A DNA stretch of 62,616 bases, counting the filler, from Aduncisulcus paluster (taxonomy: Eukaryota), in NCBI GenBank assembly GCA_024181965.1. It is 7 parts of 7 records of this genome, joined end to end, with 100 filler letters (N's around TTAATTAATTAA, not from the genome) between each part and the next. Parts side by side here need not be neighbours in the genome. Positions count along the whole stretch, not along the records: positions 1 to 9,468 come from BQXS01010901.1; 6 more parts are not named here. One strand, written 5' to 3'. This document shows positions 1-56,805 of the stretch, piece after piece. The notes below the pieces were generated by a model. The model worked only from the letters and a program-made list of their open reading frames with translations. It ran no database searches and was not told where the DNA came from. Every line of letters starts with the position of its first letter. Positions within the stretch are counted from its first letter, which is position 1. Position numbers and translations under genes: made by a program.

Positions 1-742
1 TATGGACCCATAATGAAATTAAAGCTAGATAAATTTTATTTTGAAGAGATATTAAGGAAAAAAAGAGGAGGAAAAACGGTATTTTCAATTTTACACAATC
101 ATTTAAAAAAGACGCTACGTTTTCTGAAATGCATGCGGATAATCCCAATCTTCCTCCTCTTCTCTTGTATTCTCGAAACTTCCGGATAAACAATAGATAT
201 TCAGTTCTTTCAAATAGTTCAAGCACTGGAGGGCTCTCCACCGGTAATAATTGAGTCAGTACTTCCGAATCACCAGATTGCGACTGTACAATCGGGTTTT
301 CATCACCACACATGATCCTCGACTTCAAGTGTCCTAATGACAATTTCGACACTTCTTTTTCCTCTTTAGACCCTTCACCGGAACTTTTTTCTTCCTCTTC
401 TCCCTCTTCATCCTCATCATAAGACTTTTCAAGCTTTTTTCCTGCACTCCCTAATCTCGTTTCCAAATCTGCAAACCTTCTCTCATTTTCTTCTTCCATT
501 CTACTCAATTTCATCATAATCCTTCCTAAAGTATCTTCCATCATCTTTTTAACGCTCTGCTCATCTTCCCGTTCACTTTTCTCAACGTCATCCATAACAT
601 TACTATTCTGCTCTAATCCCAACTCTAAAGGTCGCTTACTAATCGGCGTCTGGGCTCCACTGACCACCGAATCAATCATAGACATCCCAGAGCCGCCCAA
701 ATTGCGCTCCGCCGTCTCTCTTGCTCTTCTTTTTTTCCCCAT
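1..742 (-). mobile_element. Gag-like ORF of an LTR retrotransposon; runs off the window start, so it is not in the ORF track
   Basis: Manual translation from ATG at 742: MGKKRRARET...PPVLELFERTEYLLFIRKFREYKRRGGRLGLSACIS. This aligns by eye with IPYLETLNPETWRKFSRDFKHYKALGGKRTWPTLCS of ORF 8840-9468. It lies in a contig full of Ty3/Gypsy relics. Confidence 0.55.
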
Positions 743-875
743 ACAAAATTAAATTAAAAGGAAAATTTTCAGTTGTAATACACTAAATAATATTATTTTA
801 GATCTTTCAAGAATATGAAAGGGGCCAAATTTACTGTTTCAAATAAAATCAATTTCCATTTTCAAGCAATCAAAA

Positions 876-2437
876 TTGCTTACATCACGAAAAGACACAG
901 TTTCAATATTGTTGGAAACTTCACGAAAGTTTTTATTTTTAAACGATTTTGGGCAAATATTTTGTAAAGAATGTGAATCAACATTCGTTAACTCCAAATT
1001 TGCTTTATGTAGCCATATTCTTTCAACAAAACATATATCATTACTCAAGAAGACTATGACTCCCAAAAACAAAGAAATTAAAGACTTTCGACATTTACTA
1101 TTAGAAAAAGCAACAATAACACAGACTCCTCTATATCGAATGACAAAAATAATCGATCAAAAATTAATTTCCTTCATTTTGTCTCACCCCCATATTCTAC
1201 CATCCCATCATCCACTTTATACTACGAAGAATCTATTTATCTCGAGGAAGAAATGGATAAATTAGATGATTTCCTCCTAAACAAACAGATATCGATTATT
1301 CTTGATAAAGGCCACATTTCAAGGGCAGAAAAAACTTGCTATCGTTGTCAAAACGCCAAATAAGATTTATTCTTTGGATTATATCAATGTAACTGAGGTA
1401 AAATCAAAATCTTCAATTTTGAAGCAATATTATGAACAATATGCAATATCAAAAAAAGCACCCGTTTAATTGAACATTCTATTGATTTTCAGAATATTTA
1501 TTCCATTACAAGCGATAGAGAGCCAATGATGATTTCGTTATGTGAAGAAATTATAAGATGTGGGGTTGGAAAATTCTGGTGTGGGTGTATCTCTCATATT
1601 TTGAATAGTATAATTGAACATTATTTTTCATATTTATTTCCATCAATTAAGAAGTTTTTATTAATTTTAAATTCATTATTTCGATTTGGTAGCGTTGTAG
1701 ATTTAGATTTATTTTCTAGGCATAATTGTCCAAAGATTAAATATTGTGGCATACGTTGGACGAGTATATTAACCGAATTTTTAAAAGTATGTAATAATTG
1801 GGATAATTATAGAGTGGCGATTTCGGCATTTCCAAAGAAAACTGCAAAGACAAAATTTTGTCTTGATTTTCTCAAGTCAAAATCATATTTAAAGTTTGTT
1901 AAAGAATTAAAAACACATTTTATTCCTCTTGCTATATCAGCAATACGAGCATCCCAATCAAATTTTTTATCATTTTCGAATTATTTATTATTAATTAAGT
2001 TCAAAGCCAAACTTAGAATATCATGGCAGGCTTTATAAATTCCAACTGATATTTTCTCCAAGACATGGGCTGAATTAGAAAAAACCATTGAAATAACCTA
2101 TCTCTCAGTGGTATTTCGGATTCCAAATGAATCATTTAAGAACCCCATTTCCAGCATTTCAATTCCACGAATTTTAGAATTTCTAAAATTTTCACAGATA
2201 TCAAAACAAATGATGGTTAAAGGTGTAAGGTCATATAAGCAAGCAATTGAGAGAGGAGGTTTTGACAAAAAGAATTGGGAACTCGATTTTAGTGAGTTTG
2301 GAATCTTCGTTCAGCGTTGTCTTTCTATATCAGCCAGTGGAGCCTGTATCGAAAGATTATTTAAGACTTGCAGAGAATTTTGCACTCCTTTACGTGGTGT
2401 TCAGACTATTGATATTGCTTTCAAAGGCTTTTGTTAA
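876..2437 (+). mobile_element. Degenerate hAT-superfamily transposase (frameshifts and stops)
   Basis: Three collinear ORF pieces: an N-terminal zinc finger (CKEC...HILSTKH), the hAT CxxH motif (WCGCISHILN), and the C-terminal dimerisation motif (LSISASGACIERLFK). No TIR or 8-bp TSD identified. Confidence 0.75.
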
Positions 2438-2715
2438 GTATAATTATTGGGTAAATGTTGAATAAATATATACAATATAACTTTTAAATAAGATTAAACA
2501 TTTTGCAATAAATCCATTTGCGATCAAAAAACTGAAATCAGATTTAGATCCATTTCTACAAACTCATATCTTGCAGTTTTATCGGAAGTTCAGATATCGT
2601 ATCAAATATAATAATAGTATTTATTCATCAAATAAATGAATTAAATGATTTTGGATCATAAATATTGCTTTTTCGCAAGGACATATTTTGGAAACTGTGA
2701 TTTGTTGTTGATGTC

Positions 2716-3383
2716 TGGAATAAGATAAATACCAAACTTGAGCCACTATAGGTAGTGATAGTGGTAAAAGGATTAATTTGCAAGTTGAATTATCGGTTGG
2801 CAGCTGTTTAAAAGATTCTTTGTTTGCTCTTATACCTCCGCTTGGCGAGCCGGTCATCATCATAACCAACCTCGGATGAATGCTGATTCTCTTGTACGAG
2901 GCTTAATTCGAGTCATGCTCCAGACAAGATCAGGCAATATCTGGGATTTGTGTGATATTGAGGATTCTCAAGGAAGACGATGGGCGGGTCGTCATCTGAG
3001 GATCATAGTGTGTCAACATGACATAATAGGAGATAATACNNNNNNNNNNNNNNNNNNNNTGGAATAAGATAAATACCTAACTTGAGCCACTATAGGTAGT
3101 GATAGTGGTAAAAGGATTAATTTGCAAGTTGAATGATCGGTTGGCAGCTGTTTAAAAGATTCTTTGTTTGCTCTTATACCTCCGCTTGGCGAGCCGGTCA
3201 TCATCATAACCAACCTCGGATGAATGCTGATTCTCTTGTACGAGGCTTAATTCGAGTCATGCTCCAGACAAGATCAGGCAATATCTGGGATTTGTGTGAT
3301 ATTGAGGATTCTCAAGGAAGACGATGGGCGGGTCGTCATCTGAGGATCATAGTGTGTCAACATGACATAATAGGAGATAATAC
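2716..3383. repeat. 324-bp direct duplication flanking a 20-N gap (2716-3039 and 3060-3383)
   Basis: The copies are identical apart from 2 substitutions seen (accaaactt/acctaactt; aattatcgg/aatgatcgg). Probably uncollapsed overlap or haplotype at a scaffold gap. Confidence 0.9.
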
Positions 3384-3539
3384 TCCTTCATAAATAGCTG
3401 CCGTTGAATGTCAACAAATAACAGATGTTTGTATTGCTGATGATTTACTTACAGACGATGAAATAATCGTAAGGATCCGAACTGGCCCCCATCGAGCTTA
3501 TTTTCCTGACGGAGAAGCAACATCATCTGCATTATTAGC

Positions 3540-4106
3540 ATGTGGATGCGGATTGTTCAATCAGAACAAACAATAAGAGAACAGCTCGCCGCAATTGAAA
3601 ATGTCCCTCGCGAAGTTCAGGCTGTTCGTACCGCTTTTCATGATTTACAAACGGCAAGAAAGCATGCAACAGTTAATATTACTGTGGCAGTTGCCTTCAA
3701 TGTTGTTGGAGAACTTGGGCCACAAATTGAGCAATACATTTTCGATAAAACTCATGAAATACGAGAAAGACGGAGCCATGAGATTTATCTTGGTTATGAT
3801 GTACATGAAATACTTCAAACACAAAGAGAAACAGTGACACGTTCTGGTGTTGGCCCTATTCTGGAGGCTGATCATGAAGGGTCTCCATTGTCTGAGGGGA
3901 AGTGGATCAAATGGGTCAAGAACTTGAACAAGGAGAAGAAGAGAATCATGCAGCCCAAGAAGAGGAAGTGGGTCAAGAACTTGAAGAAAGAGAAGTGGAC
4001 TGATTCTAAAAATACTTTATTCAACAAGAACTTGGCCACTTCCATTTTACATTTTAATTTAAAGATCAACAACTTTAATATTTTTACTGAAACATACTAT
4101 GTTTAG
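3540..4106 (+). pseudogene. Unidentified degenerate coding remnant
   Basis: Protein-like first ~110 aa, followed by a repeated WVKNL..EK segment. Upstream broken frames suggest a longer decayed gene. No family recognised. Confidence 0.25.
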
Positions 4107-4141
4107 TATATACTATATATGTCGTAGTAGTACTACGGACC

Positions 4142-5968
4142 TTACATCTCCGATTCATGTTTCAACTTCTTGCGGTCTGGATTATCTTTTAGATAGTCAT
4201 CGAGCTTATCCAAGTCCTTCACATCCTTATACTGTAACCAAATGTTGGAATCCTCATCATATCCAACTCATGATACTAAAAATTCAATGGATTTCTTTGA
4301 TGGACCTCTATGTTCTAAAACCTTGTCTACAAAATATTCTTCGCCATCAGCTGCCCTTGCCACCTTCTCCTGTTCTTCCGACGCATCGGAATGGTACTTT
4401 CTTAGACGAGATACATGCACGGAGTTATTCTTTCCGCCATTAATATCCTTGATGATATAATAAAACTTACTTTTTCTCCTTACGATTTCAAACGGCCCCA
4501 TATTTACCGGATCGGTCTTCCTGCCTCTAATTACTCTCATCAACAGCACTTTCTCTCCAACATCAAACGAATCTTCGGCTGAGGAATTTGTTTTTGCCGT
4601 CAATACTGCTCTTTGTCGGGTCTCAGCAATTTCTGTCCTCCTCTCCAACTTTTTATCGAACAAACTCACATAATTCTTCCACATCTCCTTCGTCTCTTCT
4701 TCTGATATTGAAGCTAAATCATCAATATCGCCTTTTCTCAGGTGTTTCAATAAATTGTACTGTTCCATACAGAAGTTCTCTTGGCGAGTGCCCCGTCACT
4801 GAGTTCTTAATTCCATTCAAGATACAAGAAATGATCGGAATTGCTTGCCACCAGTTGTGTCTTTCCAATCCTGCAGCAAAAAACTTTCGAAGAAGTTCAC
4901 CAATAAACCTTTGTCTCTGATCCTTCGGATGGTTTCCGTTTGAGAAGCATGTCCGACTGTGCTGTTGTGGAAGGTCGAAAGCATTTCGCGGAATAATGGT
5001 TTATCTGCTGCTGGTACCACGATTTTCCCTTTTCCATCTATAATGTAGGTGTCCATGATTTCGGTGTTAAGTTTTTCTTCCTCGCTGAGATTTTTGTTGG
5101 TGATTGTTGAGGTGTTAATCTCATAGCTTTGACATGTCCTACGCGAGACAGAGCAGCGGCTACTGGATTGTCTGCCCCTGCAACATGTTCGATATCGATG
5201 TCGAACTCGTTCAGGTATAGTCGCCAACGAATTACCTTCACTGAACTGGACAAATATAAGAAATTCTTGTGATCAGTTCTAATCGTGAAATGTACTCCCC
5301 TTAGGTATTGTTCGCATACTGACACAGTATTTGATCGCAAACATCTCTTGTTCATTTGTAGTCCATCGTCTTTCAGTTGGGTTCAGGGTTTTGGATAGAA
5401 ACGCGATAGTTCTTGGCTCGCCGTCAACTTCCTGAAATAAAATGCCACCAACTCCAAGGTTTGAGGGATCCGTTTGTAGGATTATTGGATAGTTATAGTC
5501 GATGTGGGCTAGGATTGATCGTGAAGCGAGGTATGATTTCAGTTCCATGAGCTCTTATCCGCTTGCTCCGTCCATTTAAAGGTTTTCGCTCGTAGCATGC
5601 TTTGTATTGGTTCGATAACCTCAGCATAGTGTTCAATGTTCTTCTTATAGTGGTTGAAAAGTCACACACTTGCCTTACCCCTTTGAGATTGTTTGGAGGT
5701 CTAAGTGTGAGGATGTCTGAAATTCGACTTTTGGACACTCTTATACCATCTAAGGATATTTCCCTGCCTAAATATTCTAATTTAGGTGCTTCGATAACAC
5801 ATCACGGTGCATTATAACGAAGATTCAGTTCTTTTATACTATAAACGTAGTACGTTTAAAAACTATTTCTAAGTTTTTAAATAATTCATCGTCTGAGTTG
5901 GCGAAGACCACAATATCATCGATGAATATGTTACATTGCTTATCGACTAAGTCTTTCCAGATTCTCGA
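4142..5968 (-). mobile_element. Ty3/Gypsy chromodomain-bearing pol relic (RT C-half, RNase H, partial integrase, chromodomain)
   Basis: RT FIDDIVVF (~5905-5930); RNase H ILQTDPSNLGVGGIL and FTIRTDHKN; integrase zinc finger start FHNSTVGH; GPF motif. The chromodomain EEYFVDKVLEHR...EFLVS*VGYDEDSNIW continues past a TGA to a stop at 4142. The integrase core is partly deleted near 4905. Confidence 0.9.
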
Positions 5969-6745
5969 AAATAACAGTGGGGATGTGTCCGGGTGGACAG
6001 ATCCTCAGCTTCAGGGATACTTCTGTAATGAACAATAATCCAAGGATTGAGGTTTATCATTTTTATTTTCGTTTAATCACTTTTTATATTTTGGTTTATT
6101 GAATATATGGGAATATAGACTGCAGGGAGTTTGTTGTTTAAACTCCCGAAACAATCATCTGAACAAATAAATTTGGCCACATTAAAGTTTAAAAGATTTT
6201 ATTTCTGCCCCTCTATAGTATTTTAGATAAATTTATCTACTTTTTATTAATTTATAACAGTCAGAATGGATATTCGCTCTTTTGCAAGCGTAAAAACTGC
6301 ACTGGACGAGATTCTTGCTAATATTTGCAATTATTTTTATTCCCAAAAAGAATTATTACAAGATTATAGATTCTTGTGACCAGATAATAATTGAAGCTGG
6401 AAAACAGGTAAAAACCAGAACCGTCGGATCAAGGAGTGTCAAGTTAGGGGTTCTGGCGTCTCAACATAATCTGGTTACAATGTCCTCTCCGGCTGATCTG
6501 AGTTGTACTCACAGCACGTTGGAGATCTGGCTCTTCTGTTAAACCTTATATTAATCTGACGTGGAAATGTAATACATTTTGACGTGATTTTTTGTACAAA
6601 CTTGATATAAAATTTGTATAAATGTCGCAATAGTCATTGTAACATGCAATTTTAATATTTTAAAAGCACAAAACAATAATAAAACATACTAATTCATAAT
6701 TTTTTGTGGATTTTTTCGGAAAATATCTGTGTACTAATAAATTTT

Positions 6746-8750
6746 TTAAAATCCGTTATCAAGACTCTGACAACTCTGAAACATCTCATTTACGTTAAAA
6801 AGAGGTATAATTATAGTAAATCTAGAGAAATCATCAACTGCCACTAGGAAATGTTTGAAATTATTCCTACTAGGACCAATAGTATTGGTATCCAAAGGGC
6901 CCACTGTGTCAACTGACACGCGTTCAAAAACGTACGATGCCCGCAAATGAGCGATCGAATTGGGGGTTTTTCCCTTCTTGGATTTTTGGCAAATCAAGCA
7001 TGTTTTCCCGATCATTTCCGCATCCTTTTGGATGTTTTTCCATTTATATCCCCGCTCTTTTAGGACTTTCACCATCAAGTTGGGTGAAGCGTGGCCAAGT
7101 TCTACATGGATTTTCTCCACTATGAGCCTGTTTGAATCACGAAGAACTGGCTGTATTGAAAATGAAAATCCAGTTTGCTTGGATGTTAATAAAGGTCTGT
7201 CTGGCTCTGTAAACTCATCCAGGCGAGACAGGAAATTATACCGTATTAGTGGTTCCTGGAATGTGTTTGATTGTGAACGAAAATTGATGTAATTTCATTC
7301 TCCATCTAATCACCTTGGGAACTTCGCTCTTGAAAATGAAACCGAGATTCCTGTGGTCAGTTTCAACCAGGAATTCTTTTCCTACTAGGAATTTATTAGT
7401 AATAAAAAGTATGCATTAGAAATAATTCCATAGACCATTCCGAAGGCCTCCTGTTCATAAGTACTCCATCTTGTCTCGGTACGATTGAATTTTCTGGCGA
7501 AAAGATTGATCAATCTCTCCTTACCGAGTGGATCGACTTGTATCAAAATCCCCCCGATTCCAGAGTTTGAAGCATCTGTTCGGACAATAAATTTCCCTTC
7601 AGGGGAGGCATGACACAGTGTAAGACGACGTTCCAATGTGTTAAAATGTTATTCCACGCCTGTGATTGTTCCGAACCCATGCTGTTTTCTTATAAGGTTT
7701 CTTCATTATTCTCGTTATAGGCTCCGCACTCCGTGAGTTGTCTGGAATAAACTCGCGCAGATAATTTAACTTTTCAATCATTCTCTGGACTTCTTTCAGG
7801 GAAGATGGGAGCGTCAAACTCCGCAAGTTGCCCAACTTCTTGGAGTCAATTTTTCTGCCTTCTCCGGAAATAATGAAACCCAAATATTTAACTTTGTGCA
7901 TACCTATTTTGCATTTCGCCAGGTTTAAACAGAAGTTGAAATCCGCCAAGCGATCCAAAACCCTTTTCAAATTCGTGAGGAATTCCACATTGTCTTTTCC
8001 AAAGACAAGTATATCGTCCAAATAAATCAGACAGGCACAGGGTACGAGGTCTTTGAAAATGCTATTAATGCACCTTTGGAAGTGAGCTGGGGCTGTTTTT
8101 AGCCCAAAAGGCATACGATTCCACTGATATAAGCCCCACGGTGTTATGAACGCCGTGATGTGTTTCGTTGGTTCGGCCACTTCTATGTTGAAATACCCTC
8201 TGCGTAAATCCAATGCTCCAAATACCGTTTTGCCTGATAAAGCTGTAAAAAGTGAGTCTTGCCTGGGGATAGGGTATTGGTCATTCGGGGAAATTCTGTT
8301 CAACCTTGTAAAGTCGCAGCACAGCCTCAGTTGGCCGTTACCTCTTCTTGCCAATACTATTGGAGCCGCAAACGGACTTTTGGAGGGCGAAATAAAATTA
8401 AATTCCAGCAGTTCATCGATAAGGGCCTTCACTTCTTCCTGTAAATGGAAAGGAATTCTTCTGGCTTTTGACGCTGGTGGAGTGTTATCCGGCGGAAAGG
8501 CTAAGGTGAAAGCTGGAACTTTCGCTGGTTTTCTTTTATCAATCCTGGCAAGGTAGGGTTCCAAAAGGCGTTTTTGCCGTATGATCTCTGGTCTGAGATC
8601 CTCAATTTCGCAGATCCATTCCGAGCTAGTGTCATCCAGAGGAGAGACAATTTCTTCGTTCAAATCTTCCTCGATAAACTTGGAATCTTCTTCTGGGTTT
8701 GGTTCCGGCCAATCGAGTAAAGAATTGTTGGGAATCCTTAGATTCTCAAG
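6746..8750 (-). mobile_element. Second Ty3/Gypsy pol relic (RT, RNase H, integrase N-half)
   Basis: RT motifs LRLCCDFTRLN, ALDLRRGYF, RMPFGLKTAP, YLDDILV; RNase H VRTDASNSGIGG; integrase H-x4-H...CLIC and VSVDTVGP...VAVDDFSRF. Several frameshifts. Confidence 0.93.
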
Positions 8751-8839
8751 GTCTAATTATAGACTCTGGATCCATTGTGTTTATTTAATAAATTGTATCA
8801 AACAATTCTTACTATAAACTACAATAGTACTATTGAGAG

Positions 8840-9468
8840 ATGGGAAAGATTGTTAGAAACAAGAAATCCGATCAGGACTCTCGTATGACAGGAATACAAA
8901 TTCCTTACCTGGAAACGCTTAACCCTGAAACGTGGAGGAAATTCTCAAGGGATTTCAAACACTACAAAGCGTTAGGAGGCAAACGAACTTGGCCGACATT
9001 ATGTTCAGCGACTGCATTGCGTGTCGTGAAGATTCTTTCTGGAGTGACACATTTTACGACTCGAAAGAACTGCCGCTCGGCAAAACTCAGCCTTAACAAG
9101 GTGTTTAAGGTTACTTCGCCTTTAGGTCTCAGTGATCGCTTAAAAGATACCTGTATGAAGACCGACCTAACCATCAAGGCATTATCTCTTTATGTGGACA
9201 AGTTTGTCGAACTTGTGGAGGCCGCACCGAAAGCTTTGGAGAATAAGACCCTTGTACAACTATTTATTCGAGGTTTGTTCACTAAGCGATTAAGAGTCCG
9301 GGTTCTTACCGCGGTAGGACCTGACTGTGAGGAATACGATGAAACAATCAAAGTATCCTTCACTCAGCTGTCTTCCCTGCTGAGTAGTCTGGAAGAAAGC
9401 GAAGCTGTGCAGAAACAAATGGCTTTTGAACGGAAACAAGGCAACAGATTTACTCAAGAAAGAAAACG
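8840..9468 (+). mobile_element. Gag-like ORF, truncated by the contig end
   Basis: Retrotransposon-gag-like helical pattern (LSLYVDKFVELV...LVQLFIRGL...LRVRV). Shares a motif with ORF 1-742 and is adjacent to a pol relic. Confidence 0.6.
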
Positions 9469-9568
9469 NNNNNNNNNNNNNNNNNNNNNNNNNNNNNNNN
9501 NNNNNNNNNNNNTTAATTAATTAANNNNNNNNNNNNNNNNNNNNNNNNNNNNNNNNNNNNNNNNNNNN
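9469..9568. other. Artificial contig linker (N44-TTAATTAATTAA-N44); also at 24186-24285, 34180-34279, 40475-40574, 46631-46730 and 56706-56805
   Basis: The identical 100-nt spacer with six-frame stops occurs six times, and genes are truncated at it. Confidence 0.98.
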
Positions 9569-10971
9569 CATCGACTCCCATGCAACATGCTCAACCCATG
9601 CAACATCATGCTCAGCCCAGCTCTATCAGTCCCATCACACACTCTGTGCCGTCATCTTTATCTTCTTCATCCGCTGTTTATCACAATGCTCCTCAAAAGT
9701 CCAAAATGGCTATCCCAATTGACGAGGATCTTGAATATCTCCCCTCTTCCAAGACCCAAAAGATGTTGGCATCTCACCCTCCCTCCAGCACCCTCCCAGG
9801 TCATATCCACTCGATCCCTGCTTCATCAGTTCAAAGATCTCCGTACCCTCGGCCACAACAATCAACCCCTATGGCACAATCCCAAGCCTCCTCTTCATCT
9901 AATCCCATGAACGTAACCGTGAGTGCCATCCAGGCTGACGTCATCCAATGCATCAATCACATCAATAAGCTTTATCAAATCCAATCGACGTCGTTTTCTC
10001 GCCTGCAGAAAGATGTTTCCGATCATGCCTCCAAATTCGCTTCTTTCTCTCCCACCTCAATTATCAAGAAAGATTTCGACAGGGTGATGGAATATTTTAA
10101 AAAATTGATCGCCAAGGAGGTTGGTACCCTCAAAACCCAACAAAATAACAGCGGGAAAACCCTTGACAAACTTTTATCCTCAATGGAGCTTCGGTGGGAA
10201 GAGAAAGAGAAGAAAGACGAGCTTATGAGACAAGAGTTGGAGCATGAAAAGGAAAGACAGAGACAACTAATTCTGGGTGCCATCGAAACAGGACAACCGA
10301 TTGTACCCCCTTCCTCCTCCTCTTCTTCCTCTTCTTCTCCTGCTTCCTCGATATATAAACTGTTTGCGACTGTGATGCACGAAGTATCGAAGAGTGTGGA
10401 TTCTGCAAAAGATGATATGTTCAAGGAAGTTGAGAAAGTCCGGGCTGATATTCATGGACATGGTGTCATTGATCAATTATCGATAAAAATAGAACATCTT
10501 GAGAAGAAAATGGAGCATGCTGAGAAAAGAGAGAAAGAACTGATTCAGAAAATTGAAGGAGATCGCAAGAAGAGTTTTGATGCTTATAGAGGCAAGATTG
10601 TCCACCTTGAACAAAAGCTTGAGAAGGAAAAAGAAGAGAGATCTTCTCTCAAAAAGAGTATTTCGAGTGTCTTGGGCCAGTTTTCTTTGCTGAAACAATC
10701 TTTTGAAACCTTCCAGAAGCAAAAAGAAGCCGATCAAAAGAAAGCAGAAGAGAGGAGAAAAGAGGAGAAAGAAAGTGGAAAGAGGCGCCATGCTGAAGAG
10801 CCCATGGAGGATATTATTCATCGTCAAATGTCAGAGGTTGAGAGGAGGTTGCGAGTTATGGTCAGTGAAAATGAAAAACAAACCACCGTCCAGTTTCGAA
10901 AGTTTAATTTCCATTTAGTTCAGCTACAAAAAGCTATCCAAAAGTGCTCCTCTAGTTTTGAATCCAAGTAA
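9569..10971 (+). CDS. Hypothetical coiled-coil protein (5'-partial)
   Basis: 463-aa ORF with an S/P/Q-rich N-terminus and an E/K-rich heptad C-half. Open from the contig start. Confidence 0.75.
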
Positions 10972-11020
10972 TTATTATTTCCCCATCAATATAACATTAA
11001 CAGAAATGTAGAAGTATTTT

Positions 11021-11110
11021 CTATACTGTACTATACTGTACTACTATACTATACTGTACTATACTATACTGTACTATACATAATACTGTACTGATTACTG
11101 TACTCTACTG
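11021..11110. repeat. Pentanucleotide microsatellite (TACTA/TACTG units)
   Basis: ctatactgtactatactgtactactatactatactgtact... Confidence 0.9.
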
Positions 11111-11789
11111 AATTTGAACCGGTTTGAATCATAGTTTTTGTCATGTAAATTAGTTAATGATCTCTCTATTTTGTCATAATGGATAATTGTATGTAAAATG
11201 CTCGATTTTGCGGACAAACTTTCTATTATGCGTTAGGATTTCATGAAATAGTGCTAAAACAATGATTCCTTTAAATGTTTTCCAAGGTTATACTGTCATT
11301 GCCTTGATTAATAAACTCTGGCAACTAACACACAACGAGACAATTATATAGTCTCTTCAATGATAGAAAGTCGAAAAGCTACGATACGAGTTGCTGTACA
11401 GTTGATATCTTAAGTAACAGATAAAAAAGTTTATAATATAAACAGCATTAAATAGATTAATAATTCATAACAATCACAAATAGGATAGATTTTACTTTCA
11501 TTGATGAACCGGTAATTTGCCGTTGCTGAGTCGCCGAAATTTTCAAATTTCAAAAATTGAGTTTGTTTAGGATTCTAAAAGATCTTTGACTTGATTATTT
11601 AACATTTGATATGTTATCACATGTTCGTTAGTTTTATTTTTCATTTTGATGCGATTTTGGTTCTTCCAGAACTGTTCTGGCAGAACAACATGTGTATAAA
11701 TAATTATAAAATAATTATTCTGACTTATATGTAATTGAAAACTTCCTTTTCCTTGCTTTTGATTTAATTCAACAATATTTCAAAACCAG

Positions 11790-14700
11790 ATGACTTCTGA
11801 GACTCAACCCCTCTCAATTTTCCTTGAACTTGAGAAGAGAAAATATCCAGAGTATTTCTTCTCAATCCGATGTATCTGTGCTTTATAAGTCGTCTACTCA
11901 TCGTATTAAGGATATTTTTTCCAAGTACTCTTCCTCAGACTCTGAGATAAAAACCCATCGAGAAATTTTGACTCTTTGTTTCAAATGTTTATCTTTCTTC
12001 ATAAAACATGAAGCTATTCCCTCTGAATCCCTTGTTTCCGGTGATTCTCACAGTCCTGGTAAAACTGAGAATGTGGAAACCGTTATTCTTGATAATGCAA
12101 GTATCAAAGAGTTATTTGATACTTTTCTTGCTAATATGCTTCGTGTAGAGGTTGTATTAAGAAGCTCTGTTCTGTATGGTAAAAGAAGAGTATCTTCTGT
12201 TGTCTCACCCTCTGAAACCGAAGCAGTTGAAACTCTTGAAAAAGAAAAGGGCTATTATGGAGTGAACACCATTACAAAGAGTTTGTTTAAGATTGTTTTC
12301 GTCTCTTTATCCAATGTACCCTCCCTTGGCCGTGAAATCTTCCCCTTATTCTCTCCACTTCTCTCTGACATTCTTGCTATTGGCCTACGCGATGAATTTG
12401 ACCTCATTCATCCATCATATTCTTGGAATCATCGAATTTTTTTCTAATATTCAAGATGACTCCATCAAAGATTCCCTTTTATCTCTTCTTCTCCCTCATA
12501 TTCTGCCTTGGATGAAAAAATATTCAGACAAGCAGTACATGTCTTGGATGTCCATCTTTGAGTTTTTATCTTATGATAAAAATTGTGATCTTCCTCATGA
12601 AGGCCGTTGCTCACAACTTTGGTTCCTATTCCATCCTGTCTTGGATATTATCAAGAGTATCTCTTTCGAAGATAGTGTTGACATCTCCATTATGGAACAT
12701 TCCTTTGAATTCTTTGCCTGTCTCTCCTGTATTTCTGTCCGAGCCGTGCATATTTATGAAAATATAAAGGGTGAACTTCTCGATCGTTGGTTAACCTTTT
12801 TACAGGAAAACAAAGAAGATCAGGAACTTCTTTTTGATTATTTTTTTAGCCTTATTTCCATGCTTTCCACAGATCCAGTTCTTATTCCTCTCTTAAAGTC
12901 TCCTGAGTTCGAATATTCCCTTAAACTTTGTTCATTTACGGGTTATTTGCACTTTATTCGCAACTGTTATCCTGAGTTTATTAAATGGACTGAATTGATC
13001 TCCACTGTAAAGGCCTGTGATGATTCCGAGACCTTATCAAAACTCTACCATGAACATCGAACAGATATTCTCTCAGTTTTTACTGCTCTCAAGTCCCCAA
13101 CAACGATTCTTGCTCATAAAACGGAACTTGAACTTTGCTTTATTTGCTTGAAATTTCTCGCTGGCCATGATATTGATGGTGATTCCATCTCCCTCTCTTA
13201 TCCTGATTTCAATGATCTTATTGACACGTTCTTTGTGCATTTATCGAGCGTTGAAAATGTGTTGGAGAAGGTTGTTGATGAAGAGTATTGCTACATACTT
13301 TATGTGTGGTATTCACAAGTGGAAATTCCAATTGATCAATTGAATTCCCCGTTTTTTAAAGTGTCTCCAACCCTCCAACGTATTCTGAAAATAAGTATAA
13401 AAGAGATTTTGTGTGATGACATTTTGTCATCTTTATTGCTCATCTTTCAGCGATGTTCTGATTCTTCATCTTTGACAGTTAAAGTCGCTTTGTTTGACCT
13501 TTTTCAACCATATTTAAAAGATTGGTTGAGAGCTCATAGTTCAAGGAAAGAGATATCTGAATATCTTGGAGATTGGATGACAGTTCTTTCAAATTCCACC
13601 TACAATAACGAAATACTTCCTGGACCTCTTCCGAGATCTGAATTATCGCTTTATTCCAGAGCTTGGACAATATTCCAAGACACCATTCTTGACGTTATCA
13701 AAACTCAGTTTGTTGGAGAAAAGATTCTTGATAATCGCCATTTTTTTGCCCTTGGCCTTTTAGGCAACTTGAGCTTGGATCCAACTTGTACGGTTCAACT
13801 ATTTAATTCCATCGAAGATTTTATTGAACCCTGGTTTGAATTGATGATTAGAAAGAAGCATAGAAACGGAATGGACTTTTTGATGGTGATGATTGCTAGA
13901 TTATCATGCTATACTCCTTCAATCATTCCCCGTCTGGCCAAATTCGACCAATATATGCATTATAAACCAAATATCCCAGACTGGGAATTTGTTTATTCAC
14001 TTTACATTGAAAAATGTTTCCCTCCCTTAAAAAAATGGACCGAGTTAGCCTTTGAGATCCATGGTACCCCCATCCCTTGGTTTGTATCCACTCTATTCCA
14101 AAAACATAAAGAGTCCATTCTCTCAACGTTGCTACAACACCAATCGACAAGTCAAATTATGCAACACAAAAACGAGATAAAATTATGTTTCCAATGTCTC
14201 AGTCAGTTTGTTTGCCATGACACTATTGATGGTACGGAAGTGGCTCTCCCCCTATCTGATCTTAATGTTCTCATTAGCACATTCATTGGTCATCTATCAA
14301 GAATTACAGAGGTATTAAAAGGAGCTGTTGACGAAGAATATGTTGAAATTTGTCAGAAATATTTCGCTATCTCCGATAATAAGGGTGTAGATTCCTTATT
14401 TCCCAAGGTTGTCCCTATTTTACAACAGATTCTAGAGGGGGAAATGGACGAAGACTTCAACGCTAGTCTTATTTCCAACTTATTGCTGTGTTTCCGCGAA
14501 GTATCGAAATCGCCCTCTTTGGACACTCGATCTGATCTTATTACTGTTGTAAAACACGCCACAGATTGGATAAGCAAGTTCTCGATTGGTCACAGTGATT
14601 GGATGTATATCTTGTCACATGCAACATTTGATAATAGTCATCAAGAACCCACTGTATCGATTTGTGCTGAAGCTTGGTCCCTCTTTCCAGCTGTTCTTGA

Positions 14701-24185: not shown

Positions 24186-24692
24186 NNNNNNNNNNNNNNN
24201 NNNNNNNNNNNNNNNNNNNNNNNNNNNNNTTAATTAATTAANNNNNNNNNNNNNNNNNNNNNNNNNNNNNNNNNNNNNNNNNNNNAGTACACTAATTTTT
24301 TTTAAGAATTCACTATATGATTCAAAGTCGGGAGTTATGGAAAAAAACATAGCCAGGAGTGTAATACCAAAGGGGAATCCAATATCTCGATAATAAGAAT
24401 TCGAAAATAGAATGATATTGATATATTCAACAATATAATCGTCTTCTTATTATTCAATAGGTAGTTTGGAATTTTCTATCTTCTTCTCATGTTTTGAAAA
24501 GAAATTCATTGTTTATTGTAAGTCTAGAATCATATATAAATGCCAATGATTTCATTTTATACAATACCATCTTATCTTTCTCGTCAATTGATTGTCCATG
24601 TTTTATTTTATTTTTCGGCTTGAAAATGACATCAAATTGTTGGACAATGTACATAAACCATGCATGGAATTACATGAATTGTTTAAATAAGA

Positions 24693-34179: not shown

Positions 34180-34279
34180 NNNNNNNNNNNNNNNNNNNNN
34201 NNNNNNNNNNNNNNNNNNNNNNNTTAATTAATTAANNNNNNNNNNNNNNNNNNNNNNNNNNNNNNNNNNNNNNNNNNNN

Positions 34280-36200
34280 CACTCATACGCTCATCTTCAT
34301 CGAGTTGGGTGAGTCCTGTGAAAACTTCATTCAAACATGCATGAACAGGTTGGAATTTACCTCCTTCAATGGTTAATAAAGATCGAAACAAGGGAGATCG
34401 GAGAAGAGATGGAGACATTATTTTCCATCAGATCAATAAGAGTTTTCATGATTCTAACAACTTCTCTGAATAATGGCAATGAAACAAAGGGATGTTCACA
34501 TATGAATAAAGCGAGAATCGACATTCCAAGAGAATATCCATCACTCTTCTGAGTTTGAGTTCCAGCAAAAAGTGTTTCATAGGAATTGTACACAAGAGTT
34601 ACACATTTGGAGGCTTTTTGTTTCGAGGTTTCCTTTTTTTCTTTCTTTTCAAACTCAATGGGTTGAATCAAACCTGATTTGGTAGTTGATGAAGATGATA
34701 TAGAATCTAAGATCTGTGCCAATCCAAGATCAGAGAGAACAACAGTACATTTCTTTGAATCAGGATCAAAACGAACAAGGAAGTTGTCAGGTTTAATATC
34801 TCGATGGATAAGTCTCCTATTTGCTGTAAACACATCATCAAGACACTCAATCATCCCAACACAGAGAGCACTCACTCTCAGAGGATTCAGTGTCATGGGA
34901 TCAATATGAGTTGTGTCATGTTCACTCTTGGAAGAAGAAGAAGAATATTCGGATTCAGAATATTCCTCATCATTTTCACTCTCATCTCTAACATCCTTTG
35001 CTTTTAAATACTTGCCATCAGCACACCAACTCCTTGCAAAGTCCCTAACACTACCTCCAGCACAATATTCCATGATAAATCCATATATACCTTTCATATC
35101 TGCATCAAGAAGATCAAGAATATACAAAGGACGTGGGATACGATTGAAATATTCTGGGCAGTTAAACAACCTTTGTTGCATCTTGAACTCCTTTCGACAT
35201 CCGTTGACAACCCATTCATCAGCTTCACGGAGCATTTTCTTCAGAACACAAGGAATAGGAATACCTTCAACCTTGACAAGAATAACTTCACCAATCCACC
35301 ATGACCAATGATGCACTGAGGAGTGATGGTTGCAGAGGAAGTGAGAGTGAAGGAGTCATGTTTGATAAGTTTGGAAGAATCGGATGGGAGAGGAGGAATA
35401 CCATCACTTGTGATGAAAATAAGGGATTTGATTTGAAAAGATCGACGGTTTTTCTCTCTCCGCCTTCCTTTTCCTTGAATCTCACATAAAACAACATTTA
35501 GCAAATCAATAGGAAGGAAGTGACATTCATAGCCATGTTTAGGTTTTGTAAATTCATACTTTTTGGAAATCTTCTTACCATCAGAAAGAGTAAAAGTGAA
35601 GAGAAGAGAGGGTGAACTACCATCTTAATCCACACAAATATAAGCACCTATAATTGGGCTTGGTGCTGGAAAAGGAATGGAAATATGGGATAAGCTGACA
35701 GCCCCTTCTCCTTTTAACATTCTTTGTGCTTCGAAACTCTTATATTGACTTAATTCCTTCCTATTTGAATCATCTTTTGCCTTTACCAATTCAAATGAAG
35801 GATTAATTATTGCTGAATTATCACGGGGAATAGGAATAAAATCATCTTTCCAGTATTCATGAATTCTGGCTTAGAAATTGGCTGAAATTTGATACAAAAA
35901 TCATTGAAATATAATAAAGCAAATAAAAAAAAACACAAGAATCATAAGATTTGTGAATAAATTAAAGGTTTCCCTTCAATATTTATAAACAAACAAATAA
36001 GTAAAAACATACAGTTTCTGCCCAGCAACGTTCATGCACTTCACGAGCAGTACGTTCCTCGGAGGTTTCTTCTCGGATAAAAACAAGAGATTCTATGTTA
36101 AATACTCGACTATTTTTCTTTTCCCACGTTCCTTCCCTCGAATCCCACACTATTCGACATCAGCCAAATCAATAGGAAGAAAGAACCATTCATGAGTGAA
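34280..36200 (-). pseudogene. Domain-plus-kinase family pseudogene with one intron (35882-36012)
   Basis: HRDIKPDN and DLG kinase motifs; a 1-nt deletion in the Gly loop (~35293); a frameshift at ~34420; an in-frame TAA at 35625-35627; upstream domain remnants (HEWFFLPIDLADV; MLKGEGAVSLSHISIP). Confidence 0.85.
35882..36012 (-). other. Spliceosomal intron, 131 nt, GTATGT...CAG, phase 0
   Basis: Removal joins CWAET|PISKPEF, matching the paralog LWSEAPVVKPEF. Confidence 0.85.
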
Positions 36201-40474: not shown

Positions 40475-40574
40475 NNNNNNNNNNNNNNNNNNNNNNNNNN
40501 NNNNNNNNNNNNNNNNNNTTAATTAATTAANNNNNNNNNNNNNNNNNNNNNNNNNNNNNNNNNNNNNNNNNNNN

Positions 40575-41209
40575 ATAATAGCAATATCAATAGACGAGGC
40601 TCCTCCCTCAACAACTCCTTCCAACGCACCAATAATAAGTTTAATCGCAGAATCACCCTCGGGAGGCGTCTCAATGTCATATTCTTTCTCTAGATATTCC
40701 GTCACAGGCTTGTCACTACGACCAAGGGCGGCGGCATAACAGCCGGTCCAGGTACCGGCGGGATTGGTTCGGAACAGGCGTGGCTCCTCTCCATGGGGGT
40801 CAAAACCTGCAATAAGACAAGAAACTCCGAAGGGCCGAACTCCACCACTTTGGGTGAATTTCTGTTGTAAATCGGCAACATAACGGGTAACATGGATAAC
40901 GGTTGGTGCATCTTCATAGTTCCTACGATGTGTTTGGCATTCTAAACGGGCTTTAACAACAATAACTCTTGAATCGGCTGTCCATCCTGCGGAAGCCAAT
41001 GCAATCCCATCGTCGAGAGAATAAATCTTTTTCATTGTACGGGGATCCTGTAGTTTAGCAGCTGCTTTCCTTTCAACTCCAATAACAACGGAATCTTTCC
41101 CTTTTAAAGCAACACATGTATTACCCTTACTAACAGCTTGTAGGGCATATTCAACTTGAAACAATCTCCCATCGGGAGAGAATACAGTTAGAGCTCGGTC
41201 GTATGACAT
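40575..41209 (-). CDS. PSMA7: 20S proteasome subunit alpha4 (3'-partial)
   Basis: MSYDRALTVFSPDGRLFQVEYA signature, VERKAAAKLQDPRT and QQKFTQSGGVRPFGVS. The true start is the ATG at 41209. Confidence 0.92.
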
Positions 41210-41310: not shown

Positions 41311-44300
41311 TTACTTCTTTCCTTGAGTTACTTTCTGAAACTTACTGGGTCTTCTTTTGGGACTTTTCTGCTTCTTAGGTGACATAACCTTGTTCATCCA
41401 ACTATTCACAGAATATGACAAAATATCTCGACTATCGCTGACAGTGCTGTGTGATACGGAGCTGTGGCTGAGTGATGGAGCTTTCCTTGAATATCCTGAG
41501 GAGAATCGTGTTGGCCTAGATCTCTCTTTGAGGGGTTTCTGAATTGTGGGTTTGGTTTTACGACTAAATCCATCACTATTAAGGCAAAACGATCGAAGGT
41601 CTCGTTCATCGCTTTCTGTACTTTGTTTAGTAGAGGTTTGGCTGGATATTTCTTTGCTTAGTGGTATCTTTGGAATTATTCGCCGGTGAGATCCATCTCC
41701 TTCAATTGAAAATGAGTAATCACCTCGGTGATCACCAACAGTACTCTGTTTGGTAGAGGTTTGACTTGATGAAGATATCATGGAGCTGTTTATCTTTGGA
41801 ATTACTTTCCTACGAGATCCATCTCCTTCAACTACAAATGAATAAACATCTCGGTGATCACCAACAGTGCTTTGTTTTGTTGATGAATCTTGACTAAGTG
41901 GAACTGGACCATTAGAGATTGAGGACTCTGAATAACTTCTTCTTTCATCATCGCTTCCACTCCTTCCCTCCTCTTCTTCCTCTTTCTCTTCTCCTTCCTC
42001 TTTCTCTTCTTTCTCTGCTCCTTCATCTGGATAACGATTTTCAACTCGGTCAATACGAACAGGATAATAAGTGTTTGGAAATGCACTTCGCTGTGCATTG
42101 TTCATATTCAGCAGAGGTTTTGGAGTACCATGCAAACTTAAATAGCTCTCAATACAATCCTCGATACTGGGACATTTCCAAGCATCACCAATCTCAGGCA
42201 GGAGATATTTGATATGTTGTAATTCCTCACGTGCTTGATGAAAACTCATCCGTTTGCCACGATCATGCTGGGTTAAACCTGTGAATACTTCATTAAAGAC
42301 ATTGAAAATAGGTTTATAACGACCGCCATCGAGGGTTAATAGCGATTGGAAGAGGGGAGAAGAATGAGATAGGTTCTGACAATGGTTATCTTCCATCATT
42401 TGAATTATCATGTTCATGGTTTCATTTTTTTTGAGCATTCCTCTGCGAACTTGTCTTGCAACTTCTCTATATCCGGGAATTGTTACAAAAGGAGCATTAC
42501 CTAAAAATAATGCAAGAACTGACATTCCAAGAGAATATCCATCGGTCTTTTGGTTTTGAATGCCATGTCGAAGAGTTTCATAAGAATTATATACGAGGGT
42601 TCCACTCCGAGAAGGTCTTTGTTTTGATGTTTTCCTTTTCTTTTTTGCTTGGGATGATTTAGAAGAGTCAAAATCAACAAAACCTTTGGAAGATGTTGAA
42701 GATAATATTGAATCCATAATCTGAACTAATCCGAGATCAGAGAGAACAACAGTGCATTTCTTTGAATCAGGATCAACACGAACAAGGAAGTTGTCAGGTT
42801 TAATATCTCGATGGACAAGACTTGGATTTGCTAAAAATACATCATCAAGACATTCAATCATTCCAACACAAAGAGCAGCAACTTTCACAGGATTCAATGT
42901 CATGGTATCAATATATGGAGAATCATAAACATCGGCATACTTTCCATCAGAACACCACCTCACAGAAAAGTCTTTCACACTGCCTCCAATACAATATTCC
43001 ATCAAAAATCCATAAACACCTCTGAATTTTGCATCAAGGAGGTTAACAATATACAAGGGACGTGGGATACGATTAAGACATTTGGGATCATTGAACAACT
43101 TTCTTTGTACCTTAAACTCCCTTTGACAATCTTTCATAACCTTTTCATCCGTTTTACGAAGCATCTTCTTCAGAACACAAGGAATGGGAATACCTTCAAC
43201 CTTGACAAGAAGAACTTCACCAAAGCCACCATGACCAATGATACATTGAAGGGTAATCGCCGAAGCGGAAGTAAGAGTTAATTTGTCATATTTTGATTGT
43301 TTTGGAACCTTTGAGGAATCTGAAGGAAGGGCAGGAATATCACTGCCTTGGATAAAAACAAGAGAACCAAGATAAAAACGACGACTATTCTTCTCTCCCC
43401 ATCTTCCTTTTCCATTTATCTCACACAAAACAACATCAGGCAAATCAATAGTCAGGAAGAACCATTCATACCAATGTTGAGATCTTGTAAATTCATACCT
43501 TCTGGACGATTGCATTCCATTTGAATGAGTGAAAGAGAAAAGGAGAGAAGGAGAGCTAAAATAATTGTGAACACAGATATAAACTCCTTTCATAGGACTT
43601 GGTGATGAAAAGGGGATGGAAAGATGGGATAAGTATACCCCACATTTCCCTTTTAACATTTCTTGCACAGAGTGTTGAAGATCATCACATTTAGATTGGG
43701 GACTCAAGAGATCATCCTTGCCCAAAACTCTATCAAATGTAGGACTTATAATTGCTGGATCATCGTTTGATATCGGGATAGCTTCAATAAAGCCTCCAAC
43801 AATAAACTTTGGATATATTAATTCAGCTTCACGCCACTGAGTACTAAGAGTAGATTCTTTGAATTGACGATCAATCGATTCTTTGGGACTTTCTCCTCTA
43901 AAGAAAAGAAGTGAATAAATTATAAAATAATCCCTAATTCCCTTTCCTTCAATCTCACACAAAACAAGATCAGTGAGATCAATTGGAAGAGAAAACCAAC
44001 CAATACCATCAATCTTTGAAAAATTATACCTTTTGGATGTTTTTTGCTTTCTTGAAGATGTAAAAGTGAAAGTGAGATGAGATGGAGGTGCATTAGAGAA
44101 CATGTCACAACCAACACATATATAAACTCCCTTTATGGGGACAGATGGAGAGAAAGGGAGGGAAATATGGGTCAAATATCCATTATAATACTCTCCTTGA
44201 AATATTTTCTGTATATTCAAGCTTTGGTCATATTTTGGATCGTTTTCATTAAGAGTTGCATTCATTGCCTTGATATTTGATATGATGGGGCACAGACTTG

Positions 44301-45708
44301 ATGGATCATCTCTTGAAATTGGAATACATTCAAAATTTCCTTCAGAAATAAAAGTAGGAATTATTTCACGAAAAGCATCCTTCTCGATTACACTTGGCAC
44401 ATCCTTGATTGGGCCAGCGATTAAAGGTGGAGGTACATCGAATTTTAGAATCTGATTTCGAATAATTTCATCCAAAGTGGGACATTTCCAATCTGAACCA
44501 ATCTTTGGCAATAAAAATTTGATACCTCGAACCATTTCGCTTGCTTCATGAACGCTCATACGATCATCCACAGTAAATCGAGTTAAACCCTCAAACACTT
44601 TGTGTAGACATTGATAAACCGGTTGATACTTTCCATCTTCAATAAACTTTATGCTTCTCCACTATTTGAATCTCTAAAGAAATGTCGATAAATTCGATTT
44701 TTCCAGAAACTTCATTAATGTACGTCTAAATTCAGCAGGATCAACAATACCACTGAAATGAGGATGATTCAAGAAAGGGACGCGACCAAGAAACAAAGCA
44801 AGAATAGAGATTCCAAGAGAATATGCATCACTTTTTTGACTTTGAATACCTTCACGAAGGGATTCATAGGAATTGAATCCAATGGTACCAATAATGGAAG
44901 TAGGAGACATTTGAGCATTTGGATTTCCTTTCTCTCTTCCCATGGCCGTTTCGGATGAGAATGAATCAAAAGAGTCTGACTGTGAAGCGTTAATCATATC
45001 TTGGATGCTTAACAATCCAAGATGAGCCAAAACAACAGTACATTCTCCATCTTCAGAAGCAACACGAACAAGGAAGTTGTCAGGTTTTATATCTCGATGG
45101 ACAAGGCCTTTCTTTGCCTTGAACACAGCATCGAGGCATTCAATCATTTCAACACACAAGGCACTCACTTTCACAGGGTTTAATGTCATGGGATCATCTT
45201 CCGAAGAAGAAGAGTATTCGCTATCATAGCTGGATTCAGAGTCATCTCCACGATCTAAATCGTCACCAATTCGCTTTCTACACCAACTCTTGGAAAAATC
45301 TGAAATATTTCCACCAGCACAGAATTCCATTATAATTCCATACATGCCTTTGAATTCGTCATCAAGAAGATCAAGAATATACAAGGGACGCGGGATACGA
45401 TTGAAACATTTGGGATTATTGAATAACTTGAGTTGCATTTGAAACTCCTTTTGACAATATTTGACAACTCTTCTATTACCAACCTCAAATAACTTCTTCA
45501 AAACACATGGCATGGGAATACTTTCAATCTCAATATCAACGAGGATAACTTCCCTACTTATAAAACATTTTTGTTTAATGGCTGCAGAGGACGATAAGGT
45601 TGGCAACTCATATTTAATGGGATCATGTGGTTTTCTTTGTTGAGTTGATGATACAGAATCCATCGGTTTGGGATTCAAGTCCCATGAAAAGTCTGAAACT
45701 ATACTCAT
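41311..45708 (-). CDS. Tandem kinase: kinase 1, two novel domains, kinase 2, repeat tail; interrupted by a 33-bp inversion at 44647-44679
   Basis: ORFs 44674-45708 and 41311-44598 are in the same frame, and both kinases have HRDIKPDN. The linker reads FIEDGKYQPVYQCLHKVFEGLTRF, the family kinase C-lobe. Kinase 1 lacks the Gly loop and has HLG for DLG. Confidence 0.85.
41420..41890 (-). repeat. About 40-aa tandem repeats (STKQSTVGDHR..YSF..EGDGS.R..IPKI, 3-4 copies) in the kinase tail
   Basis: Seen in the translation of ORF 41311-44598. Confidence 0.8.
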
Positions 45709-45791
45709 ATTTAGAGTTTAGTTAAAAGACCTATTTTTGAATAAATATTGTTTTTATAAAGAATTTTATGCAATTAGCGAAAATTCAACAA

Positions 45792-46630: not shown

Positions 46631-46888
46631 NNNNNNNNNNNNNNNNNNNNNNNNNNNNNNNNNNNNNNNNNNNNTTAATTAATTAANNNNNNNNNNNNNN
46701 NNNNNNNNNNNNNNNNNNNNNNNNNNNNNNAATTCAATTAATTGCATTGTATTGCATTGCATTGCATATTGGCCAAAGTAGCATTGTTTATTTCTCCATA
46801 TAAAACTATTCGTGTTTATTTCAAATTCATTCGGGGATCAGTTCAATCAGCATTAAAATATTAACACTCAAAATACCCCCCATCTAAC

Positions 46889-56705: not shown

Positions 56706-56805
56706 NNNNNNNNNNNNNNNNNNNNNNNNNNNNNNNNNNNNNNNNNNNNTTAATTAATTAANNNNNNNNNNNNNNNNNNNNNNNNNNNNNNNNNNNNNNN
56801 NNNNN

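Follow-up and report, generated by a model that had tools for sequence, protein, structure and literature searches.

The DNA analysed here, a stretch of 62,616 nucleotides with filler included (the window), comes from the draft genome of Aduncisulcus paluster (GenBank assembly GCA_024181965.1), a free-living fornicate whose assembly is built from short reads only and is fragmented (29.4 Mb, N50 of 4.6 kb; PMC9933649). The window joins seven parts of this genome, the first of which (1-9468, record BQXS01010901.1) carries, between 4268 and 8756, a pair of decayed pol genes of the Ty3/gypsy type, both on the minus strand and called relics A and B below. Within these relics, and just past the 3' end of relic B, lie five short insertions at TA dinucleotides, the scars S1, S2, S3, S4A and S4B, and every scar found is on this first part. 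Each scar combines a duplicated TA, one fixed base per side and inverted copies of both flanks. An earlier note on the same DNA had described three of them. The relics and scars are listed below, with arm lengths that count the TA and positions that refer to the window.

Relic A, 6746-8756, minus strand: pol gene; Pfam RVT_1 3.3e-33, RT_RNaseH_2 6e-16, Integrase_H2C2 7e-08
Relic B, 4268-6004, minus strand: pol gene; Pfam RVT_1 5.9e-4, RT_RNaseH_2 3.3e-21, Integrase_p58_C 7.4e-5
S1, 5833-5858: C at 5839 with an arm of 6, G at 5850 with an arm of 8; insert 5839-5852, 14 nt
S2, 6865-6889: C at 6870 with an arm of 5, G at 6882 with an arm of 7; insert 6870-6884, 15 nt, in frame
S3, 7379-7406: C at 7385 with an arm of 6, G at 7399 with an arm of 7; insert 7385-7401, 17 nt
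S4A, 4090-4108: left arm of 7, on the right only TA-G-TA (arm of 2), 1-nt overlap; insert 4097-4108, 12 nt
S4B, 4107-4137: left arm of 9 after removal of S4A, right arm of 7, overlap of 0; insert 4113-4132, 20 nt

Relic A, in which S2 and S3 lie, is cut short on both sides and retains the reverse transcriptase, the ribonuclease H (RNase H) domain, the integrase zinc finger and the start of the integrase core. Relic B, which carries S1, is more decayed, with several frameshifts and an in-frame TGA. This TGA (5802-5804, minus strand) stands between ...LRYNAP and CVIEAPKLEYLG, at a position where relatives would have a sense codon, and is taken as decay.

All scars follow one common grammar, X-TA-C-TA-rc(X) followed by rc(Y)-TA-G-TA-Y, where X and Y are the left and right flanks and rc their reverse complements; five events and ten ends thus display a single geometry. 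The fixed base is always C on the left and always G on the right (10/10 ends), and it is the only fixed base on its side, the remainder being derived from the flank and differing at each site. The duplication is 2 bp long and consists of TA only at all scars. The flank palindromes reach 5-9 nt at nine of the ten ends and 1-2 nt at the remaining one, and the arms overlap at the junctions by 4, 1, 0, 0 and 1 nt (S1, S2, S3, S4B and S4A, respectively). The inner halves are ordered rc(left) then rc(right), and the reverse complement of the whole site would read differently. This order implies two separate fold-backs at each site and not one inversion, and it rules out a single inversion or a single template switch as the origin of a scar.

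S1 reads TTTATA-C-TATAAA overlapping TAAACGTA-G-TACGTTTA, with a 4-nt arm overlap in the form of the microhomology TAAA. In S2, TCCTA-C-TAGGA adjoins ACCAATA-G-TATTGGT and the arms overlap by 1 nt, and in S3, TTCCTA-C-TAGGAA adjoins TTTATTA-G-TAATAAA with an overlap of 0. The earlier note had placed inserts of 14, 15 and 17 nt between 5833 and 7406, and all three are found there with the grammar exact. Its palindromes of 5-7 nt do occur on both sides, but their length at these three sites is 5-8 nt, TA included.

A scan of the whole window revealed an additional locus (4090-4137) where three TA-x-TA palindromes follow each other in a row. There, S4A sits at the first TA of a run reading ...AAACA-TA-TA-TA-C... 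and S4B at the third. Deleting 4097-4108 extends the arm of the C at 4113 from 6 to 9. As this arm is longer without S4A, S4B is the earlier event and S4A the later one, which split the left arm of S4B. Once both inserts (12 and 20 nt) are deleted, AAACATATATACTACGGACC remains, and applying the grammar twice to it reproduces the nested locus letter for letter. A related copy is also present in one public sequencing run containing this DNA (X1), whose contigs were placed at 80% likeness. This copy, at about three times the single-copy depth, joins 4096 to 4140 through 12 other letters and, apart from one substitution and one indel, agrees with the sequence left when both inserts are deleted.

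Several observations identify the inserts as true insertions. Deletion of S1 by its coordinates (C...G plus one TA) joins the reverse-transcriptase frame on the minus strand, ...EIVFKR being continued by IKELNLRYNAP.... Similarly, deletion of S3 by its coordinates joins the RNase H frame, ...NAYFLL being continued by GKEFLVETDHRNL..., in the single frame NAYFLLGKEFLVETDHRNL, and unites two open reading frames (ORFs) whose RNase H domains are matched by Pfam. S2 adds five in-frame codons to the integrase core. The 182-residue integrase ORF was compared with 1.84 billion representative proteins, giving 796 matches at E<=1e-3, and 30 of the 150 listed matches were aligned; these were hand-picked from the top 65 and mostly showed a single matched stretch across the site. 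One of the 30 ends before S2, and in all of the 29 informative relatives a gap of at least 5 residues lies exactly opposite the five extra residues. A diverged copy in X1, which stops fitting before 6893, likewise has 29 nt between two conserved anchors that are 44 nt apart in the window (15 fewer). Empty sites in relatives are thus present for S2, in the 29 proteins as well as the diverged copy, and for S4, in the related copy. The proposal of the earlier note that removing the inserts restores pol is borne out by the joined frames of S1 and S3 and by the absence of the in-frame S2 from its relatives, and the structure that it described, with a duplicated TA, a fixed C and G and flank palindromes on both sides, belongs to genuine insertions. 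Tiny introns were also considered and rejected, as the coding strand reads CTA...TAG and not GT...AG and the inserts are sited in dead genes; GT..AG occurs by chance in S1 only.

Contigs of X1 with 0 differences span 4000-4298 (S4), 4875-5965 (S1) and 6489-7040 (S2), at a single-copy depth of about 1240-1270, and no insert-free variant at these three sites figures among the rows listed. S3 falls within covered depth bins, with no spanning contig among the eight pieces listed, to which 181 more would have to be added. The reads therefore carry three of the loci as assembled, S3 being the exception among the pieces listed. As X1 may be the source data of the assembly, it does not constitute independent support; its contigs rule out an assembly slip, not an artefact at the level of the library.

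The window contains six C-centred and five G-centred TA-x-TA palindromes with arms of at least 5, which form four C-then-G pairs within 30 nt. Markov simulations of order 1 and order 3 (100 each) gave a mean of 0.5-0.7 single palindromes and no pair in 200 simulations, so that within the window the motif is more frequent than in shuffled sequence, on which the earlier note had let its proposal depend. Among the 16 combinations of self-complementary dinucleotide (TA, AT, CG or GC) and centre order, TA with C then G accounts for the four pairs and the other 15 give none, the mirror arrangement G-then-C included. Two of the single palindromes belong to ordinary coding sequence, namely the open reverse-transcriptase frame (8357) and a dynein gene (53577). 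The placement of the scars is also uneven: all five events lie in 3.3 kb of retroelement relics and are found among 237 TA sites, with none at 1100 others outside long host ORFs (P ~2e-4, the two nested events not being independent). Such clustering suggests local hopping or, alternatively, a locally old and unconstrained stretch.

From these inserts we infer a transposon, the position of its nick, a hairpin, a nuclease and a ligase. The reading that we favour, with confidence about evenly balanced against doubt, is that the five inserts are footprints of a TA-duplicating cut-and-paste DNA transposon with 5'-C...G-3' ends, the excision of which would have left hairpinned flanks that were then joined independently of Ku. 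The simplest account of the duplicated TA is a 2-bp target duplication, and that of the invariant C and G is that they are the first and last bases of an inverted-repeat element. The transposase would nick the non-transferred strand one base inside the element, so that the flank keeps the C at its 3' end. The 3'-OH of this flank would then attack the opposite strand at the boundary between element and TA, releasing the element with an exact 3' end and sealing each flank as a covalent hairpin, X-TA-C-TA-rc(X). Such an attack across the duplex, with X-TA-C on the top strand and TA-rc(X) on the bottom strand, would explain why the palindrome is odd and centred on one base. A host nuclease would open the hairpins 3' of their tip, at a distance of 5-9 nt in nine cases and of 1-2 nt in the tenth; had they been opened on the 5' side and then filled in, a G would stand on the left, which is never seen. 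The overhangs would finally be filled in and the ends joined with 0-4 nt of microhomology by a Ku-independent pathway.

This last step is proposed because the metamonads surveyed so far lack Ku and Artemis. Metamonads are reported without Ku70-Ku80, DNA-PKcs and accessory factors, and alternative end joining is described as complete in some of them and absent from parasitic diplomonads (PMC8516963). Ku70 and Artemis are blank in 10/10 metamonads and Mre11 is entered for most (Supplementary Data 2 of PMC8516963). The long palindromic additions may fit what is expected from a host without Artemis/DNA-PK, by analogy with the V(D)J locus. In scid coding joints, long palindromic (P) insertions occur where Artemis/DNA-PK is missing. 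Hairpins opened far from their tip without a dedicated opener would be common to both situations, the scid case concerning a vertebrate immune locus deficient in DNA-PKcs/Artemis, and ours transposon donor sites. The role of Artemis, and the origin of P elements in hairpin opening and fill-in, are both described in PMC13041557.

More tentatively, and at rather less than even confidence, we propose the existence of a TA-specific transposase that nicks one base inside its element and cleaves the second strand through flank hairpins, in a host which, devoid of Ku, DNA-PKcs and Artemis, opens these hairpins far from the tip and joins the ends by an alternative pathway. The earlier note spoke of an 'unidentified excision/repair system'; the wording is fair, but there is no need to assume anything other than an ordinary transposon.

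Flank hairpins have been demonstrated for hAT, Transib, RAG and Mutator-like elements (MULE; PMC5499845). The hAT, Transib/RAG and Mutator-like systems resemble the present scars by their palindromic flank copies at the empty donor site and by a hairpin opened off-centre (PMC5499845), and footprints with flank palindromes are as such already known. The P-type additions from each flank that characterize these systems are present here at 10/10 ends. Usual P additions measure 1-4 nt, as compared to arms of 5-9 nt here. Transib duplicates 5 bp. Moreover, the nick lies 1 nt outside the element in hAT and at the border in RAG, giving respectively a flank-derived centre and an even palindrome, whereas the scars centre on one base derived from the element. 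The size of the duplication also differs, being 8 bp in hAT and 8-9 bp in MULE (PMC5499845, PMC6004678) but 2 bp here.

Elements of the Tc1/mariner/IS630 group share the TA duplication, a 5' strand cut inside the element that leaves element bases on the flank, and ends that are often C...G, as proposed here. Their footprint, on the contrary, consists of 2-3 end bases per terminus between the TAs, instead of one base and a flank palindrome of 5-9 nt. The earlier note considered TA duplication with C...G ends typical of Tc1/mariner, which fits the scars without being diagnostic, as some CACTA/Mirage/Chapaev (CMC) elements have CAC...GTG ends and a 2-bp duplication (PMC6004678). CMC elements resemble the scars in their first base C, their last base G and the duplication length, but the passages of PMC6004678 on these 2-bp duplications do not say whether they are TA. 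No CMC element or transposase was seen in the window. On footprint evidence, CMC elements are grouped with Transib/RAG-like chemistry, and to our knowledge a CMC flank hairpin has not been biochemically shown. What appears new here is that a TA duplication is combined with palindromes which centre on a single element base and have arms of 5-9 nt on either side, in a host clade that lacks classical end joining. In the full-text literature, which leaves most subscription journals outside, neither flank-derived double palindromes at TA nor flank hairpins for TA-duplicating elements were found described.

Several points weigh against the excision of a hairpin-forming transposon. We know of no TA-duplicating superfamily that hairpins its flanks. 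Mre11-type nucleases cleave a hairpin loop on its 5' side, whereas the opening proposed here is always on the 3' side of the tip. The donor is hypothetical, its scars disclose no more of the element than that it would begin with C and end with G, and five events from a single 9.5-kb contig form a small sample. In the window, pairs of the form TA-C...G-TA with 16-nt inverted ends number only three, all weak (13/16); the 23 candidates with any TA-flanked 14-nt inverted ends within 3 kb match at no more than 12/14 (no shuffle control). Similarly, none of the general inverted repeats in 1-12000 is bounded by TA-C...G-TA, and no DD(E/D) transposase or TA-flanked inverted-repeat copies were seen in the window. 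The same chemistry would be expected to leave some footprints with short palindromes, and these, searched as TAC(T or TA)(A or TA)GTA, are not enriched (11 versus 7.4 +/- 2.7 expected). Six of these 11 matches fall inside one tandem array. Finally, Tc1/mariner elements are reported to make their double-strand cuts without a hairpin (PMC5499845, PMC5714172), and the repair-gene table of PMC8516963 does not include A. paluster.

The tandem array just mentioned (11021-11110) is microsatellite-like, with about nine copies of the unit CTATACTGTA and six TACTGTA heptamers. Tc1-type elements with CAG...CTG ends canonically leave TACTGTA as their footprint.

A transposon may also have left the scars without any hairpin, a possibility that we regard as unlikely but credible. 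A mariner-like staggered cut would leave 3-nt 3' CTA overhangs on an element with 5'-CTA...TAG-3' ends, the terminal TA would prime on the duplicated TA, either on the same strand or on an identical sister or homologous end, and a snap-back of the Pol theta type, as in SD-MMEJ, the form of microhomology-mediated end joining that depends on synthesis, would copy 3-7 nt of the end's own flank before the ends are joined. The likeness to SD-MMEJ lies in inverted copies of break-proximal flank at a repaired break and in independence from Ku, and snap-back from inverted primer repeats of 1-4 nt near breaks is documented, TA/AT being among those most used at I-SceI breaks in Drosophila (PMC5728401). 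PolQ is entered for three of ten metamonads, Carpediemonas, Kipferlia and Trepomonas (Supplementary Data 2 of PMC8516963), and the TA duplication and the nick inside the 5' end are Tc1/mariner traits (PMC5499845; also work on ISY100). Under snap-back, the retention of the C on the 3' strand, seen at 10/10 ends, follows automatically, and the right side of S4A (TA-G-TA only) resembles an unextended CTA overhang. However, acting in cis it places the primer TA and the template TA only one C apart, which imposes a 1-nt loop at all ten ends, and acting in trans it requires two identical broken ends simultaneously. Snap-back normally varies the position of its primer, whereas the geometry here is invariant, with a fixed 1-nt spacer at ten ends. 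Furthermore, both ends are extended in 4/5 scars and two of the five junctions lack microhomology, which is unusual for synthesis followed by annealing, and the TA/TA primer pair exists only if the element begins with CTA. The earlier note had put forward a hairpin-forming TA transposase and snap-back synthesis followed by end joining side by side; they remain the two leading explanations, but the 1-nt loop required at all ten ends places snap-back below the transesterification hairpin.

An improbable alternative dispenses with the transposon: a host or domesticated site-specific nuclease would repeatedly cut repeat DNA at TA, leaving a 2-nt stagger, and seal the ends as hairpins, the scars being the trace of its action on silenced retroelements. 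The confinement of the five events to 3.3 kb of retroelement relics and the lack of a donor element in the window would agree with it. A nuclease acting on plain TA nevertheless offers no source for the untemplated C and G, which are simplest as end bases of an inverted-repeat element. Besides, the window is mostly coding, so that scars elsewhere in it would be selected against, and it shows no candidate gene for such a nuclease.

Template switching during replication, or strand switching by reverse transcriptase during copying, is less probable still as the source of the inverted flank copies. Template switches can yield short inverted duplications, and the inserts are indeed specific to individual copies. 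One switch, however, produces one contiguous inverted segment, whereas each site here shows two fold-backs together with a second TA and a C and a G that have no template, in a pattern that recurs five times over two unrelated relics and a non-coding flank. An artefact of assembly or library, which the fragmented short-read draft (PMC9933649) and the use of a sole run that may be its source data could invite, is largely refuted and the least probable of all, since single-copy-depth contigs carry S1, S2 and S4 with 0 differences and chimeric reads would not yield a fixed grammar of TA with C and G.

Around the relics, the first part of the window shows further features. At 8669-8800, between the end of relic A and the beginning of a gag-like ORF with the initial residues MGK (8840-9468, plus strand), word depth reaches about 39 times that of a single copy. 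A similar ORF of opposite direction (2-748, minus strand) runs off the other end of the contig. Retrotrans_gag matches only at E=0.1; the high-depth region probably represents a high-copy retroelement family. A nearly identical direct duplication of about 324 nt (2716-3039 and 3060-3383) flanks a 20-N assembly gap and represents a tandem repeat or else the result of joining in the assembly. Decayed ORFs at 819-2437 (plus strand) encode a zinc-finger-like stretch (CxxC...HxxxxH) and, at the C terminus, an ...ERLF... motif, and a 27-nt inverted repeat of 78% identity (818-844 and 6157-6183) brackets 818-6183. These ORFs were considered as a hairpin-forming hAT-like transposase, but Pfam gave no match for them even at E<=5 and longer proteins contained no homologue; the likeness to hAT transposases lay in a motif only, and the idea was dropped as evidence.

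The seven parts of the window are joined by six spacers, each made of 44 N, TTAATTAATTAA and 44 N, across which gene neighbourhoods are artificial. The spacers, and a gene informative about the host, are located as follows.

Spacers: 9469-9568, 24186-24285, 34180-34279, 40475-40574, 46631-46730 and 56706-56805
Proteasome alpha subunit, 40577-41209, minus strand: 100% identical to a protein named by NCBI as Aduncisulcus paluster, the next best match being at about 60%

From this identity, the host is most likely A. paluster or a very close relative. Paralogous protein kinases occur on four different parts, all on the minus strand (34366-35355, 41311-44661, 44674-45717 and 57327-60569). They have near-identical motifs in common, such as VKVEGIPIPCVLKKML, and in some of them the N terminus consists of repeated modules that Pfam does not match; they look like a lineage-specific expanded family.

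Cut-and-paste transposases are sorted by three known routes of second-strand cleavage, and TA-duplicating elements are the textbook case of excision without a hairpin. Flank palindromes at TA sites would point either to target choice and chemistry combined in a way not yet described, or to an unusually regular fold-back repair by a polymerase. The first three bases of the element would separate the two, as CTA keeps snap-back possible and any other start with C excludes it. If the excision of a hairpin-forming transposon is confirmed, a target choice like that of Tc1/mariner would be joined to a chemistry like that of hAT/RAG, and the scars would form a readable natural record of repair in a eukaryote without Ku, DNA-PKcs and Artemis. 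The scars further suggest past activity of a cut-and-paste element in this free-living relative of Giardia, which has been little studied. Either outcome would provide a handle on the processing of double-strand breaks and hairpins in metamonads, a group reported to lack classical end joining.

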